The notes under the pieces were generated by a model, which was not told the DNA's origin, did no database searches, and saw nothing but the letters and a program-made list of their open reading frames with translations. The position numbers and the translations under genes were made by a program. This document shows positions 57,318 through 64,000 of a stretch of DNA of 64,000 bases, piece by piece; position 1 is the stretch's first letter; the number at the start of each line of letters is the position of its first letter. Origin of the DNA: Anaerolineae bacterium (lineage in GTDB: Bacteria; Chloroflexota; Anaerolineae; S140-20); assembly GCA_034435435.1 (NCBI GenBank), contig DAOTXN010000052.1:42927-106926 (forward strand), given 5' to 3'.

Positions 57318-59126
57318 ATGTCGTTGTTCTATGGCCTCAACACAGAGGCTTATGACCGAGAATACACCGACCGCGAGCTGGTTTATCGCGTGCTGGGCTA
57401 TTTCGCGCCGCACCGCCGACATGTGATCATCGTCGGCTTGCTTATCACCGGTATCGCCATCATCGGCGCGGCGCAGCCTTTTGTCGTGGCGTGGGGACTC
57501 GACCGCTTGATTGCGTCGCCCTCACTGGGCGTGCTGTGGGGGTTGGTAGCCGTGGTGTTGACCATTGGCGTCTTGAACTGGGCCGGCAACTGGCTGCGCC
57601 GCCGCCTCACCGCGCGCATCATCGGCGACGTGGTGCTGGCGCTGCGCCGGGACGCCTTTCAAGCCTCAATGCGCCACGATATGTCCTTTTTTGACCAGTT
57701 TCGCTCCGGGCGCATTATCAGCCGCATCACCTCCGACACTCAGGAATTTTCCCAGGTGGCGCTGCTGGTCACAGACTTGCTAGGACAACTGATGTTAGTC
57801 GCCATTATGATCGTGGCGTTGTTCGCAGTCTCGTGGCAACTGACGCTCATGCTGCTGGCGCTGTCGCCGGTGGTGATCCTGCTGGCGACGGCTTTTCGGC
57901 GCGTCGCCCGCTACGTCACGCGCCGGGGCTTTCGCGCCATCGCCGAGGTCAACAGCGCCATTCAAGAAGCCGTCACCGGCATCGCCGTGGCCAAGAACTT
58001 TCGCCAGGAGCGCGCCATCTATGACGCTTTTGCCGACGTGAACGCGCAATCCTATCGCATCAACCTGTTGCGCGGCTTTGTCCTGTCGAACATCTTTCCG
58101 ACGCTCAATGTGCTGTCCGGGATCGGCACGGCGGCGCTGGTGTATTGGGGCGGGCTGACGGCCTCGACGGGAGGCATCTCGGTCGGCAGTTGGTACCTGT
58201 TTATCATGAGCGTGGACCGTTTCTGGTTCCCGCTGATCAACGTGGCGGCTTTTTGGAGCCAGTTCCAGGCCGGTCTGGCGGCCGCCGAGCGCATTTTCGC
58301 GCTCACCGACGCCGAGCCGACTGTGCGGCAAACCGATCAACGCCCGGTCCCGCCGCTGCGCGGGGACATCCGTTTCGAGCAGGTGCGCTTTCGCTACGGC
58401 GAGCAGGAACAGGTGTTGAACGATTTTAGACTGCACATCGCGCCCGGCGAGAGCGTGGCGCTGGTGGGGCACACCGGCGCCGGCAAGAGCAGTATCGCCA
58501 AGCTCATCGCCCGCTTTTACGAGTTTCAAGGGGGAATCATCACCATCGACGGCCGGGACTTGCGCACGCTCGATCTGCACGCCTATCGCCGGCAACTGGG
58601 TATCGTGTCGCAGAACCCTTTCCTCTTTTCCGGCACGGTGGCCGATAATATCCGCTACGGCGCCCCCCACCTGAGCGACGCCCAGATCGAGCAGGTGGCC
58701 CGGCGCATCGGCGGAGGCGAATGGCTGGAGACGCTCCCCGACGGCCTGCGTACAGACGCCGGCGAGCGAGGGACGCACCTGTCGATGGGGCAGCGGCAAC
58801 TGGTGGCGCTCACGCGCGTGCTGGCCCAGTCGCCCGCCATCTTTATCCTGGATGAAGCCACCGCCAGCATCGACCCCTTTACCGAGTCGCAGATTCAAGA
58901 AGCGATGGACCTGATCCTGGCGCACAGTACCTCGATTCTGATCGCCCACCGGCTCTCCACCGTGCGGGCCGTGGATCGCATCGTCGTGCTGGACCACGGG
59001 ACGATCATCGAGCAGGGCAACCACGCGGCGCTGATGGCCCGCGGCGGGCATTACGCCGAACTGTACGACACCTACTTTCGGCACCAGTCGCCGGATTTCC
59101 GATATGCGGAACGTCTTCGAGAGTAA
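57318..59126 (+). CDS. ABC exporter, fused permease/ATPase half-transporter (subunit 2)
   Basis: Walker A GHTGAGKSS, signature LSMGQRQLVALTRV, Walker B IFILDEATASID. Confidence 0.9.
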   Translation: MSLFYGLNTEAYDREYTDRELVYRVLGYFAPHRRHVIIVGLLITGIAIIGAAQPFVVAWGLDRLIASPSLGVLWGLVAVVLTIGVLNWAGNWLRRRLTARIIGDVVLALRRDAFQASMRHDMSFFDQFRSGRIISRITSDTQEFSQVALLVTDLLGQLMLVAIMIVALFAVSWQLTLMLLALSPVVILLATAFRRVARYVTRRGFRAIAEVNSAIQEAVTGIAVAKNFRQERAIYDAFADVNAQSYRINLLRGFVLSNIFPTLNVLSGIGTAALVYWGGLTASTGGISVGSWYLFIMSVDRFWFPLINVAAFWSQFQAGLAAAERIFALTDAEPTVRQTDQRPVPPLRGDIRFEQVRFRYGEQEQVLNDFRLHIAPGESVALVGHTGAGKSSIAKLIARFYEFQGGIITIDGRDLRTLDLHAYRRQLGIVSQNPFLFSGTVADNIRYGAPHLSDAQIEQVARRIGGGEWLETLPDGLRTDAGERGTHLSMGQRQLVALTRVLAQSPAIFILDEATASIDPFTESQIQEAMDLILAHSTSILIAHRLSTVRAVDRIVVLDHGTIIEQGNHAALMARGGHYAELYDTYFRHQSPDFRYAERLRE

Positions 59127-59297
59127 AGCCGCACAACTCAATCATCCGTAAGTGTAAACGACCATCTGTACTCCAGGACTTGCCCCGATGTCTTGCGCAC
59201 TTTTAAATGCGCCGTGTGTTTGCCGACACCCAGGTCACGATTCCAAAGACATGGGTGTGTTTCATTAAAGCGCAGCGGAGGCGCGTCAGCGCCGCCG

Positions 59298-59370
59298 CGC
59301 TAACACCAGTTTAAGCCGCAAAAATTGCCGTTTGCGGCGATTTTTGCCGGACTCTAAACATCTGTTATGT
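59298..59370. repeat. attC-like imperfect palindrome A, 6 nt downstream of the DUF1801 gene stop
   Basis: Read in the minus (gene) orientation: ACATAAC-agatgTTTAg...[13-bp hairpin GGCAAAAATCGCCG/CGGCAATTTTTGC with one mismatch]...cTTAAActggtGTTAGCG. The outer AACA/TGTT and inner GTTTA/TAAAC segments pair around an unpaired spacer. Confidence 0.4.
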
Positions 59371-59376
59371 TCATTC

Positions 59377-59754
59377 TCACTGCTTTTTATTAACCTCTGC
59401 CCATCTATATTTAACCATCCTGATAATCAATTCTTTGGGTAGTGGCTTATTAACCGGAAATTGGACTGAACCTTTTGCTGTTTTAAAGTCTTTTAACTCA
59501 TCCGCGAATCTTTCAATAGTGCTTGGGTGAGGGTAAAAACCAACATGTGTTTTATATCCGGCGATCATAATTTGTTGGTCTCGTTTACCACCTTCAATCA
59601 GTGAAAACGCCGGGATTTGATAATTTATCATTTCTTTAGCTTCTGGAGCGGCTATTTTGATATATGAACGTATTTCTTGAAGCGCACGTTGCACTGCTTC
59701 AGGTTGCTTTATGATATAGTTATCAATTTCATTTTGAGTTTCTTTGTTTTTCAT
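59377..59754 (-). CDS. DUF1801 (YdhG-like) domain protein, strongly AT-rich gene
   Basis: IDNYIIKQPEAVQRALQEIRSYIKIAAPEAKEMINYQIPAF...KGSVQFPVNKPLP is the typical DUF1801 layout. Its GC content is visibly far below the surrounding DNA. Confidence 0.75.
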   Translation of the reverse strand: MKNKETQNEIDNYIIKQPEAVQRALQEIRSYIKIAAPEAKEMINYQIPAFSLIEGGKRDQQIMIAGYKTHVGFYPHPSTIERFADELKDFKTAKGSVQFPVNKPLPKELIIRMVKYRWAEVNKKQ

Positions 59755-59847
59755 TTTTCTTCTCCTTACAACCGCATGATAGCCGCGTCAGGTGCAGCCG
59801 CAGGTTGGGCATTTCCGCTCCTTGCTGCCTGCTTCTGGATACCCTGC

Positions 59848-60195
59848 CTACCCGCTCAACAAAACGCCAAGCTTTTGCAACACCTCGTTCACCGTCCGCA
59901 CAGGCAACCGGCAGATCTTTTCCGCTTCGCGAACCCGCCAGTCCAGACTCTTGACCTGATCCGCCAGGATCGCCCCTCGGACTTCCAGCCCGTCAGGTAT
60001 CAACACCTCGAACGGATAACCCTTCACCTGGCTCGTCACCGGGCACAGTATCGCTAACCCTACCTTCCCATTGTACGCCGCCGGCGACAACACCACCGCC
60101 GGTCGGCGCTCTGCCTGCTCATGCCCTGCCTGCGGATTCAGTGTGATCCACACCACCTCCCCGCGTTCGGGAACGTACCCCGCTCCGCCTACCAT
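59848..60195 (-). CDS. mazF: MazF/PemK-family endoribonuclease toxin
   Basis: YVPERGEVVWITLNPQAGHEQAERRPAVVLS...LCPVTSQVKGYPFEV matches the family consensus. Confidence 0.85.
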   Translation of the reverse strand: MVGGAGYVPERGEVVWITLNPQAGHEQAERRPAVVLSPAAYNGKVGLAILCPVTSQVKGYPFEVLIPDGLEVRGAILADQVKSLDWRVREAEKICRLPVRTVNEVLQKLGVLLSG

Positions 60196-60431
60196 GCTTC
60201 ACTCCCTACCGCCGGACCCGTATCGACTTCGCTGTGCAGGTTCGCTTCGTTCACCTGCGCCAACAGCTGCGCCAGAGTCAGTCGCGGCTCAGCAATGGGC
60301 GTGATGACCAGCTTCCCATCTACCAGGGCGATTTCGACCGATGAATTGGGTTCAATCCCGACTTCTGTGGCGAACGGCTTGGGGATACGCAGGGCCAGGC
60401 TATGCCCCCACTTCTGCACTCGGGTTTCCAT
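60189..60431 (-). CDS. mazE: AbrB/MazE/SpoVT-family antitoxin
   Basis: METRVQKWGHSLALRIPKPFATEVGI is a swapped-hairpin (SpoVT/AbrB) N-terminus. It overlaps the mazF start by 7 nt. SD GGAGGAGG. Confidence 0.8.
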   Translation of the reverse strand: METRVQKWGHSLALRIPKPFATEVGIEPNSSVEIALVDGKLVITPIAEPRLTLAQLLAQVNEANLHSEVDTGPAVGSEAW

Positions 60432-60462
60432 GGTCAACACCTCCTCCGTAGTGTCTACAAAG

Positions 60463-60491
60463 AAGATACATCAGTTTCAACTTCTTGTCAA
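60463..60491 (-). promoter_or_regulatory. Candidate mazEF promoter (TTGACA-17-TATCTT on the minus strand)
   Basis: -35 TTGACA is the complement of 60486-60491. -10 TATCTT is the complement of 60463-60468. Spacing is 17 nt. Confidence 0.45.
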
Positions 60492-60755
60492 GAGCGTTCG
60501 ATGTCAGCCTTCAATGCCTTCTTCAGTTTCTCAAAGGGTTTATCCGCGCCCAGGAAATAGGCGTGGGTGACAAAGAATGCTTCGCCTCTTTTTCAACAAA
60601 TCGCCCATCGAAAGGTCGGGGTTGATTTTGACTTTCACCACTTGTAAATCGTCCGCTTTGGACGGAACAGAGTGAGCGGAAGCGTCGAAGGATGTGGCGG
60701 CGACCACCAGCAAATCGGCGAAGCGTTGGGCGACCTGCGCCGCGCAAACACTCAT
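60489..60755 (-). pseudogene. Small ORF translationally coupled to the upstream DUF1801 gene; apparently frameshifted at an A5 run
   Basis: The ATGA overlaps the DUF1801 stop. Frame 1 ends ...NPDLSMGDLLKKRRSILCHPRLFPGRG. An alternative frame continues with the protein-like GEAFFVTHAYFLGADKPFEKLKKALKADIERS. Family not recognised. Confidence 0.3.
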
Positions 60756-61177
60756 TTCCAACCGCGCGCGCGCCTTGCCTGCTGGATCCACTTCCGTATC
60801 AAGGGCTCCTGCGCCTCCTCAAGCGTCTTCAGCTTCACGTAGCGGCTCCTTCCAACGGTTCCAAGCGGGGGTGGAGGATCAAAGTCCGCCCCGCCGAAGA
60901 ACACGATGTTCACGGAGACGTCGTAGGCGACCATCTCGATGATCCACCCCTGGTCCGGCAATCCGTAGTACGCCTTCTTCCACTTGACGGCGTATTGAAG
61001 CCCAGGAATCGTCTCGCAGATCAATTCGTCCAGTCGCTCGACGATGGGATGCAGATCCGGCATCACACGCCGAATCCAATCGTCGATGTCCGCGTGGCTG
61101 TCCGTGGCCTCGGGTACCTTCTTGGTGGTGAGTGGCTTGAGTGACTTTGCTTTGCTTTGGCTTTTCTTGGCCTTCAT
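60752..61177 (-). CDS. DUF1801 (YdhG-like) domain protein, second copy, Lys-rich N-terminus
   Basis: IDDWIRRVMPDLHPIVERLDELICETIPGLQYAVKWKKAYYG...RYVKLKTLEE is the DUF1801 layout. Confidence 0.7.
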   Translation of the reverse strand: MKAKKSQSKAKSLKPLTTKKVPEATDSHADIDDWIRRVMPDLHPIVERLDELICETIPGLQYAVKWKKAYYGLPDQGWIIEMVAYDVSVNIVFFGGADFDPPPPLGTVGRSRYVKLKTLEEAQEPLIRKWIQQARRARGWK

Positions 61178-61323
61178 ATCAGTTACCTCTTCTTCCTCAA
61201 TGCCTTCCGAGCCTCGCCGAGTCGGACTTTAATGCCCCCACTGGCGTTCAATGCTGATATTTGCTCAATTCTTTCGGTAATTTATACAAGTCTTGGTCTG
61301 AATCGAACAGTTGTGGATAAGCA

Positions 61324-62190
61324 TCAAAATCGCGGAATTAATACAGGCGTTCTCTTTTTGTAAGATTCATAATCTTCCTGCCCGCCCCATTTTTTATCCG
61401 CTTTTTTCTCAAGTAAAGGAATTCCACTGACGCGAGTAAGAAGCAATGTGACAAAAATGGGAGAAATCAAAGCAACCCATTGCCAGCCTTGCAGAACGGG
61501 TAAAGCGATGACAGCTACGCCGATCCAGAGAACGATTTCGCCAAAGTAATTGGGGTGGCGGGATCGAGACCATAAACCAGTTTGAATAAACTTGCCTTTG
61601 TTGTCTGGATTTGAACTGAAGCGACTTTTTTGGAAGTCGGCTACAACTTCAATGGCAAAGCCAAAAGCCCATACCAGAAAACCGACCAGGGCAAATAAAT
61701 CCAATTCTTTTCTGTTGGCAGTTGTAATGGCGACCAGCGCAGCGGCCATTGTGAACGTGATCCACAAGCCCTGGATCGTCCAAACGTTTAGGAAACGAAC
61801 AAAGGAAGGTTTGATTTCGTCGAACCGATCATCCCTCCCTGCTTTTTTGATGCGACCGAACAAAAAAGTTCCCAAACGGATTGCCCAGATTACTACCAAA
61901 GCCCATAGAAGGATTGATCTGCTATCAGCACCTGTGCTAAAAAAAACTGCAAGTGTGATTATAAAAATATAAGTGATGCTTCCCGTCAGATCAAAGAATT
62001 TTTCGGTCTGTAACAAATATGCGGGGATAAAGGCCAACCACTGGATCAGAAAAGCCAGTCCGACCGACAAAGCAAATAATGGAACTCCAACAATCAAGGT
62101 TCCGCCTTGACTACCCGCCAAAGCAAGCAAGAGACCAATCAATATCAAGATGGGTAATGCAATTAATGTGTTGCGATCTGTTGTTTTCAT
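61324..62190 (-). CDS. DUF1295 / steroid 5-alpha-reductase-like membrane protein
   Basis: Polytopic protein. Contains the family signature GLWSRSRHPNYFGEIVLWIG. Confidence 0.8.
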   Translation of the reverse strand: MKTTDRNTLIALPILILIGLLLALAGSQGGTLIVGVPLFALSVGLAFLIQWLAFIPAYLLQTEKFFDLTGSITYIFIITLAVFFSTGADSRSILLWALVVIWAIRLGTFLFGRIKKAGRDDRFDEIKPSFVRFLNVWTIQGLWITFTMAAALVAITTANRKELDLFALVGFLVWAFGFAIEVVADFQKSRFSSNPDNKGKFIQTGLWSRSRHPNYFGEIVLWIGVAVIALPVLQGWQWVALISPIFVTLLLTRVSGIPLLEKKADKKWGGQEDYESYKKRTPVLIPRF

Positions 62191-62245
62191 GGAATTTTGT
62201 CCCTGTATAAACTTGTGTCGGATGTAGATTAAAACCCGCGTCGTT

Positions 62246-62335
62246 GACCTTGGGGCTGGGTGTCGTTATGGCATGTTGTCTAACAATCTCTTCGGGCAGA
62301 TCGCAAGTGCTGTCGGTAACAATGCGAATGTTCAT
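62246..62335 (-). pseudogene. Remnant of the N-terminus of a DegV-family (fatty-acid binding) gene
   Basis: MNIRIVTDSTCDLPEEIVRQHAIT matches the DegV N-terminal consensus (I.TDST.DLP.E....I). The similarity ends after about 30 codons and the ORF runs into the DUF1295 gene. Confidence 0.5.
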
Positions 62336-62393
62336 TTTTCCCTTTTATGTTCCTGGCTGGCTTGTGTTTTCAAGCCATCTTTTGCAAAGAACG

Positions 62394-62489
62394 GCCTAAC
62401 GGCGCGACGGCTTCATCCGCTGGTTAGCCGGAGGCGAGCGTCAGCGAGCCGAAGGCTAGCCAGCGGAGGCCTCCGCTGCGCCGTTAGCG
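62394..62489. repeat. attC-like imperfect palindrome B (96 bp), bounded by GCCTAAC ... GTTAGCG
   Basis: The arm ctaacggcgcgacggcttcatccgctggttagcc pairs imperfectly with ggctagccagcggaggcctccgctgcgccgttag, around a 24-nt centre containing gcgtcagcg. Confidence 0.45.
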
Positions 62490-62513
62490 CGGATGCGCAG
62501 CGTCCGCGCTAAC
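62483..62513. repeat. Perfect 11-bp-arm palindrome, GTTAGCGCGGA-n9-TCCGCGCTAAC
   Basis: Seen directly. It overlaps the right end of element B and contains the 10-mer ccgcgctaac, which is also present at 59295-59304 and 63326-63335. Confidence 0.6.
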
Positions 62514-62568
62514 GGTCACATTCAGCCGCGCCGCGTGTGCGACGTGACACCTTTGATTGAAGACACCT

Positions 62569-62632
62569 GGTAACGTGCAACCGACGCCGCCAGCAGGCCG
62601 CGAAGCGGCGTCGGCTGCAATGGATGTTAGCC
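62569..62632. repeat. attC-like imperfect palindrome C (64 bp), 9 nt downstream of the 62642 ORF stop
   Basis: GGTAAC-g-tgcaaccgacgccgc ... gcggcgtcggctgca-atggat-GTTAGCC. The stem is 15 bp with one mismatch, and the unpaired spacers are asymmetric. Confidence 0.45.
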
Positions 62633-62641
62633 CGCTTTATC

Positions 62642-63196
62642 TTATAAAGACTTCAAAATTTCTTCGTGTCCTACTCGAATCATCTTCGGTGCTGGTATAG
62701 CAACTGCCTGCACGGGTTCGCCTTGCTTACGTCTGAGAATATTCAGTGCTTCACCTATCGGTAATCTTGTCATAAGTGAAACGATTGGCGACTTTACAAT
62801 TAGGACATTTTTCTTTGCGTATGGCACATCGCCAGATTGCAAAACCCATTTGCCTGTTTGTCTTTTTTGTTCGATTAGTTCCCATACACCTTCTATGCTC
62901 ACGTCCATAACGTCTAAAAGGCGGCTTCCATATTCAAAGAATTGTCCCTCTTCGGCCATACGGCCTTGTGGTGTAAATAGGATTGGGATACCTTCTTGCC
63001 CTTTGAATTGTTTGTAAAGTTCGAGGGCTTCTACTGTGGAAGTGAAGTTTTTATGCGCCTCATAGGGTTGAATAACTACGGCTTCGGCTTCGGGTGCTTC
63101 CCTTAATGCTTCTACTGCTCCACCGATGTATACGTATGAGTACGCAATAAACAAGCGGTCCAAATTGGTCTTGACATATTGTTTGGGAATGGTCAT
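62642..63196 (-). CDS. Hypothetical protein (184 aa), lower-GC cassette-like gene
   Basis: Clean ORF with SD AAGGAGAAAG. No family recognised. Confidence 0.5.
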   Translation of the reverse strand: MTIPKQYVKTNLDRLFIAYSYVYIGGAVEALREAPEAEAVVIQPYEAHKNFTSTVEALELYKQFKGQEGIPILFTPQGRMAEEGQFFEYGSRLLDVMDVSIEGVWELIEQKRQTGKWVLQSGDVPYAKKNVLIVKSPIVSLMTRLPIGEALNILRRKQGEPVQAVAIPAPKMIRVGHEEILKSL

Positions 63197-63239
63197 TGCT
63201 TTCTCCTTATTTCACAAACCCTCGCTCCCAAGTACATCT

Positions 63240-63335
63240 GGCTAACGACGGAGCGGGCTAACGGCGCGGCGGATAAGCCGCGCGCAGCGGAGGCGCGTCA
63301 GCGCCGACGCGAGCGTCGGCATCCGCCGCGCTAAC
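63240..63335. repeat. GC-rich multi-hairpin element sharing a 24-mer with the element at 59270-59304
   Basis: gcgcagcggaggcgcgtcagcgcc occurs at 63282-63305 and 59270-59293. Three local hairpins are present: gcgcggc/gccgcgc, ggcgc/gcgcc and gccgacgc/gcgtcggc. It is flanked by ctaac repeats. Confidence 0.6.
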
Positions 63336-63434
63336 GGCCTCGGCTTCACCCGCCGCCACCCACCCAACTGCCGATGGTCAGCCGAAACCCTCAACTCCGG
63401 CATGATCGGCGGTCGGGTGCAAGCCGTGTTAGGC
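63329..63434. repeat. attC-like imperfect palindrome D (106 bp), bounded by CGCTAAC ... GTTAGGC
   Basis: The arms cggcttcacccgccgcc and ggcggtcgggtgcaagccg pair with single-nt bulges. The terminal taac/gtta also pair. The centre contains ggtcagcc. Confidence 0.45.
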
Positions 63435-63529
63435 GGCCGCCTGCGGAACAAGTGCTTTGCCTGCCAACCTTAGCCCCAATCTACAAAGCACCAGTCGAGC
63501 GCACAAACGTCACATAGTTTTTCTGCCAA

Positions 63530-63994
63530 CTACGGGGTTGGCCGTTTTTTCCAATTGAGGCGCTGCCGATCAATTAAGTGCGTAAGAGTCCGATCTGCCA
63601 GTAACAGTTTAACCTGCTCAAGCACATCCGTTATATCAAAGACCCGACCAAAGCAGGCATTCGCACCTGCATCAAATGCCTGTTGATAGGCCGCCTCCCA
63701 GCCTTGAGCTTGACCGTGAGGAAAAATATCTGCCCAGCCCATGATGATCGGCAGAGTTGCCAATCTTGTGGATGACTCGCGCAATTGTTGGCACAGCCTC
63801 AGCCCGTCCTCTGATGTTTTGATTAGTCGCAGTGTAATCAACAGGTCGGGTGGATCAGTTAGGCAAACTTGCAGACCCACTTCTGTTGAACACACACCTT
63901 GAACCGTAAAGCCGTGACTGGTGAAGAAGAAGGTGAACAGGTTGATGTCATCTTGATCTTGGAGTACGCAAAGGATTCTCTGAGATGAATTCAT
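63530..63994 (-). CDS. Orphan pseudo-receiver (CheY-fold-like) protein
   Basis: RILCVLQDQDD...PDLLITLRL...LPIIMGW follows REC beta1/beta3/beta4 spacing. The phospho-acceptor position appears to be Thr rather than Asp. Confidence 0.4.
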   Translation of the reverse strand: MNSSQRILCVLQDQDDINLFTFFFTSHGFTVQGVCSTEVGLQVCLTDPPDLLITLRLIKTSEDGLRLCQQLRESSTRLATLPIIMGWADIFPHGQAQGWEAAYQQAFDAGANACFGRVFDITDVLEQVKLLLADRTLTHLIDRQRLNWKKRPTP

Positions 63995-64000
63995 ACCAAT

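Follow-up and report, generated by a model that had tools for sequence, protein, structure and literature searches.

The last part of the 64,000-nt stretch of Anaerolineae DNA analysed here (the window, C52:42927-106926, where C52 denotes contig DAOTXN010000052.1) is occupied by a run of small minus-strand open reading frames (ORFs) of patchy GC content with attC sites between them. Very probably, this region, which reaches from about position 59270 to 64000 and further on at least to the end of an insertion sequence (IS) some 690 nt past the window, belongs to a chromosomal integron cassette array and is partly decayed, and most likely it represents the old, distal end of the array. An integron cassette is made up of an ORF without a promoter and, behind it, an attC site whose bottom strand (here, the plus strand) folds as a bulged hairpin; the integron integrase, IntI, binds this hairpin and cleaves at the AAC of the R box, and the cassettes are excised as circles and re-inserted at attI, beside the promoter Pc. 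An initial annotation of this DNA, made without database searches, had proposed a candidate cassette array with four palindromic elements, A to D, and the cassette array is borne out by matches to an attC model, by the shared orientation of the ORFs and by the presence of an integron integrase gene (intI) in the genome. Only two sites, attC_C (with revised boundaries) and attC_D, are proven attCs; element B is attC debris, and element A is unproven.

The attC sites were sought with a surrogate covariance model (R1) built from 17 sites, none of which comes from the window, with a broader covariance model (R2) based on 79 sites, some of them from class 1 integrons and cyanobacteria, and with a strict geometric scan for the succession AAC, 6 bp, 1-nt bulge, 6 bp, 1-nt bulge, 5 bp, loop, and an un-bulged complement leading to GTT. 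The covariance-model check that had been proposed yielded two significant R1 matches in the window, attC_C and attC_D (Table 1), with noise only and nothing significant in the remaining 59 kb. In attC_C, which is 126 nt long and begins 9 nt past the stop of its ORF, the R'' box is GGCTAAC and the R' box GTTAGCG (62507-62513); element C had thus been correctly recognised as an attC, but the originally delimited positions 62569-62632 comprise only the R'' box and the inner hairpin of the site. The limits first given for element D, by contrast, are exactly those of the R1 match. This site, attC_D, has the R'' box GCCTAAC and the R' box GTTAGCG and begins 95 nt past the ORF stop. Both sites match the attC covariance model and possess pairing R'' and R' boxes and, lying 0.7 kb apart on the minus strand, conform to the definition of an attC-site cluster without an integron integrase (CALIN), namely at least two attCs on one strand within 4 kb. 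Folding of the bottom strand, another of the checks proposed, gives two 1-nt bulges in each of the two sites and three in element A. In attC_C and attC_D, the 3' arm carries the bulged bases T and C with 6 bp between them, and the loops of the hairpins are variable; these bases differ from the canonical G and T.

Several controls indicate that R1 recognises genuine attCs. In the class 1 array estX-psp-aadA2-cmlA1-aadA1-qacL, the model recovers each of the six attCs, and in aac(6')-Ib/arr-3 it recovers the two that are present; every one of these class 1 matches immediately follows the 3' end of its gene and is on the cassette strand, with no other match at E < 0.01 in 25.8 kb. When applied to 914,603 nt of other genomes, comprising 80 intI loci, R1 gave 51 matches, none of which is on the same strand as intI, and 50 of them are upstream of it; the seven matches of the strict scan in the same loci all were upstream of intI and on the opposite strand. 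Within the genome, the strict scan yielded 12 sites, on C57 (four), C52 (two), C56, C114, C116, C169, C184 and C53, in addition to one on the locus of a relative, and termini similar to RYYYAAC and GTTRRRY are present at all strict-scan sites except that on C53. Among 27 sites of this genome, the base pairs are 93% intact, 17 of the 23 pairs show compensatory changes, both values being reached by none of 500 shuffles, and the AAC/GTT pairs are invariant or almost so. The attC features of the two window sites agree with the definition given by Nivina et al. (2016, PMC5027507), which names extrahelical bases on one arm (R''/L'') of the folded bottom strand, a spacer left unpaired and a terminal structure that varies.

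The scan of the entire genome with R1 produced 22 significant matches on 13 contigs (C57, C116, C169, C56, C40, C52, C114, C184, C59, C54, C39, C7 and, weakly, C144). With the filters turned off, the search of the array contigs gained three sites and lost one weak site, bringing the set to about 25 attCs of at least 29 bits on 12 contigs. The contigs that bear attCs are mostly short or have the sites near an end, and the sites are co-oriented within each contig. This distribution bears on the possibility that the palindromes are ordinary repetitive extragenic palindromic (REP) elements, miniature inverted-repeat transposable elements (MITEs) or terminators in a generic low-GC island, of which REP elements scattered throughout the genome at non-cassette locations had been named at the outset as an outcome that would undo the array interpretation. 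The genome indeed contains a 140-nt palindromic MITE with TAAC...GTTA termini in 52 copies, and an energy-only scan finds TAAC...GTTA hairpins everywhere; the MITE, however, is absent from C52 and shows no sequence likeness to elements A-D, and the matches to R1, a model that also recognises class 1 attCs and sites adjacent to intI in the correct orientation, are confined to the 12-13 array contigs. Furthermore, the 10-mer GCGCTAACGG occurs 15 times in the genome, against about 19 occurrences expected by chance (our own estimate from base composition), and, on the ORF strand, the hairpins are not succeeded by a run of T. This explanation is already contradicted by the data, and we consider it extremely improbable. 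The energy-only scan itself was dropped as too unspecific in a GC-rich genome, having mainly exposed this unrelated MITE (for example, at C22:30112-30251 and C69:6907-7046; ends TAACTGCTCA...TGAGCAGTTA; 52 copies by BLAST).

As first noticed, a low-GC mosaic follows the stop of an ABC transporter gene: the GC content is about 0.61-0.68 in the ABC genes, drops to 0.37-0.39 at 59300-59750 and then fluctuates between 0.41 and 0.65 up to the window end. The ABC gene, with its stop at 59126, is convergent with the array, which ends beside it, and the ORF list confirms that every substantial ORF between 59377 and 64000 is on the minus strand. Of the gene names originally assigned, Pfam supports both DUF1801 proteins, MazF, MazE and DUF1295, whereas the similarities to DegV and to a receiver domain are weak and fall below the cut-offs (Table 1); for the receiver-like ORF, the match to an OmpR-type NCBIfam model (2e-7) also is far below the cut-off. 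The 184-aa ORF has no match in Pfam, NCBIfam or PADLOC, and the searches of Rfam, PADLOC and NCBIfam returned nothing informative. The mazEF pair was correctly said to have its own promoter, as is usual for toxin-antitoxin cassettes.

Table 1. Features of the cassette array segment, in window coordinates.
Feature	Position	Strand	Support
postA, truncated GC-rich remnant at the distal array end	59270-59297	-	homologous to part of 63256-63328
Element A, possibly a heterologous attC belonging to the AT-rich cassette	59298-59370	-	fold dG -18.4, z -5.15
DUF1801 ORF, 125 aa, AT-rich (GC ~0.37)	59377-59754	-	Pfam PF08818, E 3e-13
Orphan attC 5' arm after mazF (R'' GCCCAAC, X, bulge, Y, bulge A, Z)	59779-59810	-	nhmmer 5'-arm profile, E 1e-3
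mazF	59848-60195	-	Pfam PemK_toxin, 1e-27
mazE	60189-60440	-	Pfam MazE_antitoxin, 1e-11
Sigma-70-like promoter of mazEF	60463-60491	-	TTGACA-17-TATCTT, 10/12 matches
Overlapping short frames after the second DUF1801 ORF	60523-60791	-	no family match
Second DUF1801 ORF	60752-61177	-	Pfam PF08818, 8e-11
DUF1295 membrane protein ORF	61324-62190	-	Pfam PF06966, 6e-66
74-aa frame overlapping the DUF1295 5' end	62111-62335	-	similar to DegV N-terminus over first ~25 residues, 2.6e-4, under curated cut-off
Centrally deleted mini-attC, right half of element B	62394-62429	-	R1 17.4 bits, E 0.006, partial; R2 17.5 bits; 5'-arm profile E 0.02
Inverted mini-attC, left half of element B	62454-62489	+	GGCTAGC-C-AGCGGAGG/CCTCCGCT-GCGCC-GTTAGCG; R2 10.1 bits on +
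attC_C, of the 184-aa cassette	62507-62632	-	R1 73.3 bits, E 5e-19, full model; R2 66.5 bits
184-aa cassette ORF, GC ~0.43, ribosome-binding site AAGGAG	62642-63196	-	no family
postD, attC debris: orphan 3' arm (63257-63283) and GC-rich hairpin	63256-63328	-	3'-arm profile E 1.1, third on contig
attC_D, of the receiver-like cassette	63329-63434	-	R1 57.3 bits, E 2e-14; R2 56.1 bits; strict scan also
154-aa cassette ORF, weakly receiver-domain-like	63530-63994	-	Pfam Response_reg 1.7e-4, below cut-off

Two of the cargo genes have counterparts in other cassettes. A mazEF paralog with 88% amino acid identity directly follows an attC at C114:815-941, and the homology between the two mazEF segments stops inside the attC 5' arm common to both. 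Of 80 metagenome loci with DUF1801 homologues (45-57% identity), at least 12 have the gene in a cassette flanked by attCs, and all 21 significant attC matches there are on the gene strand; DUF1801 is a recurrent integron cassette cargo in metagenomes. Near-identical copies of the two intact cassettes were not found elsewhere in Logan look-ups or in the genome, and exact-protein look-ups for the two best-defined cassettes gave matches in the same sample only.

Some of the junctions between the other ORFs contain fragments of attCs. The palindromes with TAAC and GTTA termini that had been reported are all present, and they fold better than shuffled sequences (z -5.2 for element A, -4.9 for B and -3.6 for D). 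Element B, initially taken for one site, is derived from attC as supposed but consists of two truncated copies in opposite orientation. The mini-attC at 62394-62429 comprises R'' GGCTAAC, X, the bulge and Y, followed by the spacer and R' GTTAGGC, with the central positions omitted in the R1 alignment, and is homologous to the full attC at C169:848-930; its partner at 62454-62489 makes a 34-nt inverted repeat with 62396-62429. A similar doublet, 93% identical, follows an attC at C169:762-871. The postD segment (CGGCTT-ATCCGC-CGCGCC-GTTAGCC at 63257-63283) adjoins the R' box of attC_D without an R'' box of its own, folds stably (dG -36.1, z -4.4) and is homologous to the 3' arm of the same C169 site, 848-930. 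A stretch of 30 nt of postA is 96.7% identical to C52:106208-106237 (window 63282-63311), and the 18-mer GGAGGCGCGTCAGCGCCG is found in the genome only at postA and at its counterpart in 63256-63328. The junction 59755-59847, contrary to the initial statement that it lacks a convincing element, holds the orphan 5' arm, the second-ranked match to the 5'-arm profile on the 107.7-kb contig; its 3' arm is gone, with the AT-rich cassette in its place. Over 33 nt, this arm matches the attC at C57:1346-1378 without a difference, and it also is found in the C114 mazEF paralog.

The integron integrase that had been expected is encoded in the genome, on a contig other than that of the window. The product of C173:50024-50938 (minus strand) scores 474 bits against TIGR02249, for which the cut-off is 265 bits, a cut-off that was passed by none of 14 control genomes. 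This protein is 53% identical to IntI1, with a single one-residue gap near the N-terminal domain and none through the integron-specific region ALERKYP...DPRSG, and retains the catalytic RKHRHY positions. Its nearest relative is from 'Chloroflexi bacterium RBG_16_48_8' (86%), followed by proteins from many Anaerolineae metagenome-assembled genomes (MAGs). The gene looks intact and is five bases from the contig end, C173 ending inside the 5' end of intI; because intI points into C173, it is past this end of the contig that attI and the cassettes must be located. Remnants of intI are present at C57:8611-8910, C10:205-369 and C184:2076-2185. On C57, the layout is canonical, with four co-oriented attCs opposite an internally deleted intI.

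The prediction that attI and intI lie beyond position 64000 fits the orientation of the attCs, but the contig, 107,748 nt long, ends only 822 nt past the window. This terminal part includes, at C52:107081-107482 (window-equivalent 64155-64556, minus strand), an AT-rich ORF of 133 aa with no family match, placed between the IS end and an attC remnant that consists of the 5' arm only (about 64008-64042); given this ORF and this remnant, the array continues past the window. The terminal 132 nt of C52 are a repeat common to the ends of C51 and C53-C55. This segment, C52:107617-107748 (691-822 nt past the window), is the end of a high-copy IS with terminal repeats CTGAAATTACGG(T/C)ATAG. Two types of IS ends occur in 8 and 36 copies, nearly all at contig termini (about 40 other contigs), and the same IS family cuts, besides the array in the window, those on C116, C54 and C10; on C10, the IS sits about 70 nt upstream of the intI remnant.

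The segment in the window and the intI of C173 may belong to the same array. Several observations weigh against the cassette array interpretation. There is no physical link to intI or attI, and such linkage is not demonstrable because the contig stops in a multicopy IS. The genome is a MAG (5.35 Mb, 184 contigs, mean GC 0.608) with an estimated contamination of 5.5%, and C173 and the small array contigs are tied to C52 by binning and shared IS ends. Intact attCs are present at only two of about nine junctions; junctions 61178-61323, for which the initial annotation likewise had listed no convincing element, and 60441-60560 gave no attC trace with R1, R2 or the arm profiles. Element A has canonical attC geometry, its plus strand forming a 5-bp R box (TAACA/TGTTA), a 3x3 unpaired spacer, a 5-bp L box and three 1-nt bulges on the 3' arm, and begins 6 nt past the ORF stop, but covariance models do not support it: R1 gave no minus-strand match, and R2 scored it at 9.3 bits (E 2.3 over the window), such that the attempt to rescue this element with the broader model was rejected as not significant. 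An A-like hairpin is also absent in the nearest metagenome relatives (60-65% identity) of the AT-rich DUF1801 gene.

On C52 the element is formally a CALIN because no link leads from this contig to C173: the search for contig-end overlaps by which C52 or C173 could be connected with another contig gave nothing but IS ends in common, and the comparison with genomes of the same family (flanks of the ABC pair and the C52-C173 link) showed that gene order is not conserved, with homologues of the neighbours located mid-contig on C161. The segment accordingly could be a stand-alone CALIN, that is, an array fragment not contiguous with any integrase, perhaps split off by IS rearrangement, a sub-case of the cassette array interpretation that differs in linkage only. 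Such a fragment would be orphaned from Pc, yet IntI acting in trans could excise the two intact cassettes. In favor of this possibility, the contig ends in a high-copy IS that also cuts three other array contigs, the several intI remnants (C57, C10, C184) suggest repeated rearrangement, and CALINs are reported to be common and often to be found in genomes that also carry intI (Cury et al. 2016, PMC4889954). Conversely, the orientation of the attCs and ORFs is just as expected if intI and attI lie beyond the contig end, the intI of C173 adjoins a contig end in matching orientation, and nothing excludes continuity across the IS. We regard a stand-alone CALIN as possible but not as the favored interpretation.

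An assembly or binning artefact, such as a chimeric join to C52 or the origin of C173 from another organism, could be suspected in a MAG of 184 contigs with this level of contamination, in which attC and IS repeats promote misassembly. However, the same run (SRR10095362) has independent Logan contigs that match both ends of the segment at 100% identity: one spans the junction that leads from the ABC gene by way of the AT-rich cassette to the orphan arm, and the other spans the region from attC_C to the IS end. In addition, the IS-end families are common to chromosome-sized and array contigs, and integron integrases are frequent in this class, being present in 17 of the 41 genomes searched, this one included. 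An artefact thus appears very unlikely.

The array of the window is a new example of a known system. Chloroflexi have already been listed as integron-bearing, and CALINs, IS in integrons and intI pseudogenes have been described (Cury et al. 2016, PMC4889954). The segment resembles sedentary integrons and CALINs (PMC4889954) in having at least two co-oriented attCs within 4 kb, small, co-oriented and mostly uncharacterised ORFs, a toxin-antitoxin pair, attCs that are homogeneous within the genome and an IntI in the same genome; it differs in that most of its junctions have truncated or inverted attC fragments in place of intact sites and that the array is cut by a high-copy IS, and this genome differs in having several intI remnants along with one intact gene. 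Similarly to the Vibrio cholerae superintegron, with its VCR repeats and its array-stabilising toxin-antitoxin cassettes, this is a chromosomal array with a family of mutually similar attCs and with toxin-antitoxin genes that bear a promoter, whereas the phylum and the attC family itself are different, many attCs of the segment are degraded, and the array is fragmented in the assembly, with at least about 25 attCs counted. In contrast to class 1 integrons, the cargo in the segment is not antibiotic resistance.

The attC of aadA1 (CP047288, L116:910-969) shares with the window sites an R'' box of the form RYYYAAC, 8 nt to the first bulge and 6 bp to the second (a top-strand A), a variable loop and an R' box of the form GTTRRRY, and a 20-nt core, AGCCGACGCCGCTTCGCGGC, is identical to attC_C at 62590-62609. 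The aadA1 site differs in length (60 nt versus 106-126 nt for the window attCs), in the spacer beside the R box (5 nt versus about 1-2 nt, asymmetric and partly paired, in the window) and in the first bottom-strand bulge (G versus C). The Chloroflexota-derived R1 scores the aadA1 and aadA2 attCs at 47-48 bits; a Chloroflexota origin of aadA-type attCs was considered, found unsupported and dropped, and the aadA1 and aadA2 attCs have been assigned to a Xanthomonadales-type model (Ghaly et al. 2021, PMC8352920). The attC at C169:645-770 is 81% identical over about 126 nt to a site in another Chloroflexi MAG (L037:1-125, VGOG01000212), which hints that cassettes may be common to different lineages.

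As judged by the sequence features of attC_C and attC_D, IntI would be expected to act on both, and this enzyme, the gene of which is on another contig, should still be able to mobilise the 184-aa and receiver-like cassettes, whose attCs are intact. The DUF1295, DUF1801 and mazEF cassettes are probably fixed in place because their junctions carry truncated attC arms or nothing, and the same probably holds for the AT-rich DUF1801 cassette. By analogy with toxin-antitoxin cassettes in other sedentary integrons, mazEF with its own promoter plausibly stabilises the array.

The only unusual aspect of the segment is the density of truncated and inverted attC fragments, which include orphan 5' arms, 36-nt mini-attCs, an inverted doublet that recurs on C169 and a 3' arm fused to the preceding R' box. 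It is conceivable, albeit rather doubtful, that this debris was left behind by some recurring process of attC inactivation as opposed to random decay. The candidate processes would be deletion by slippage between hairpin arms or top-strand (inverted) recombination, and with either one the distal cassettes of a sedentary integron would gradually become fixed. Another possibility is that the doublet represents a small family of palindromic cassettes that have no ORF and spread between attC sites.

Through the analysis presented here, a further chromosomal integron array is documented in Anaerolineae, a group from which integrons are known although few have been described, and a working attC model becomes available for this Chloroflexota lineage. 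It also indicates that a first reading of the sequence alone can spot attC sites correctly. The cargo, consisting of DUF1801, DUF1295, mazEF and ORFs of unknown function, is of a typical kind, without evident relevance to medicine. The truncated and inverted attC remnants, together with the invasion by IS, illustrate how distal cassettes of such arrays may become immobilised.

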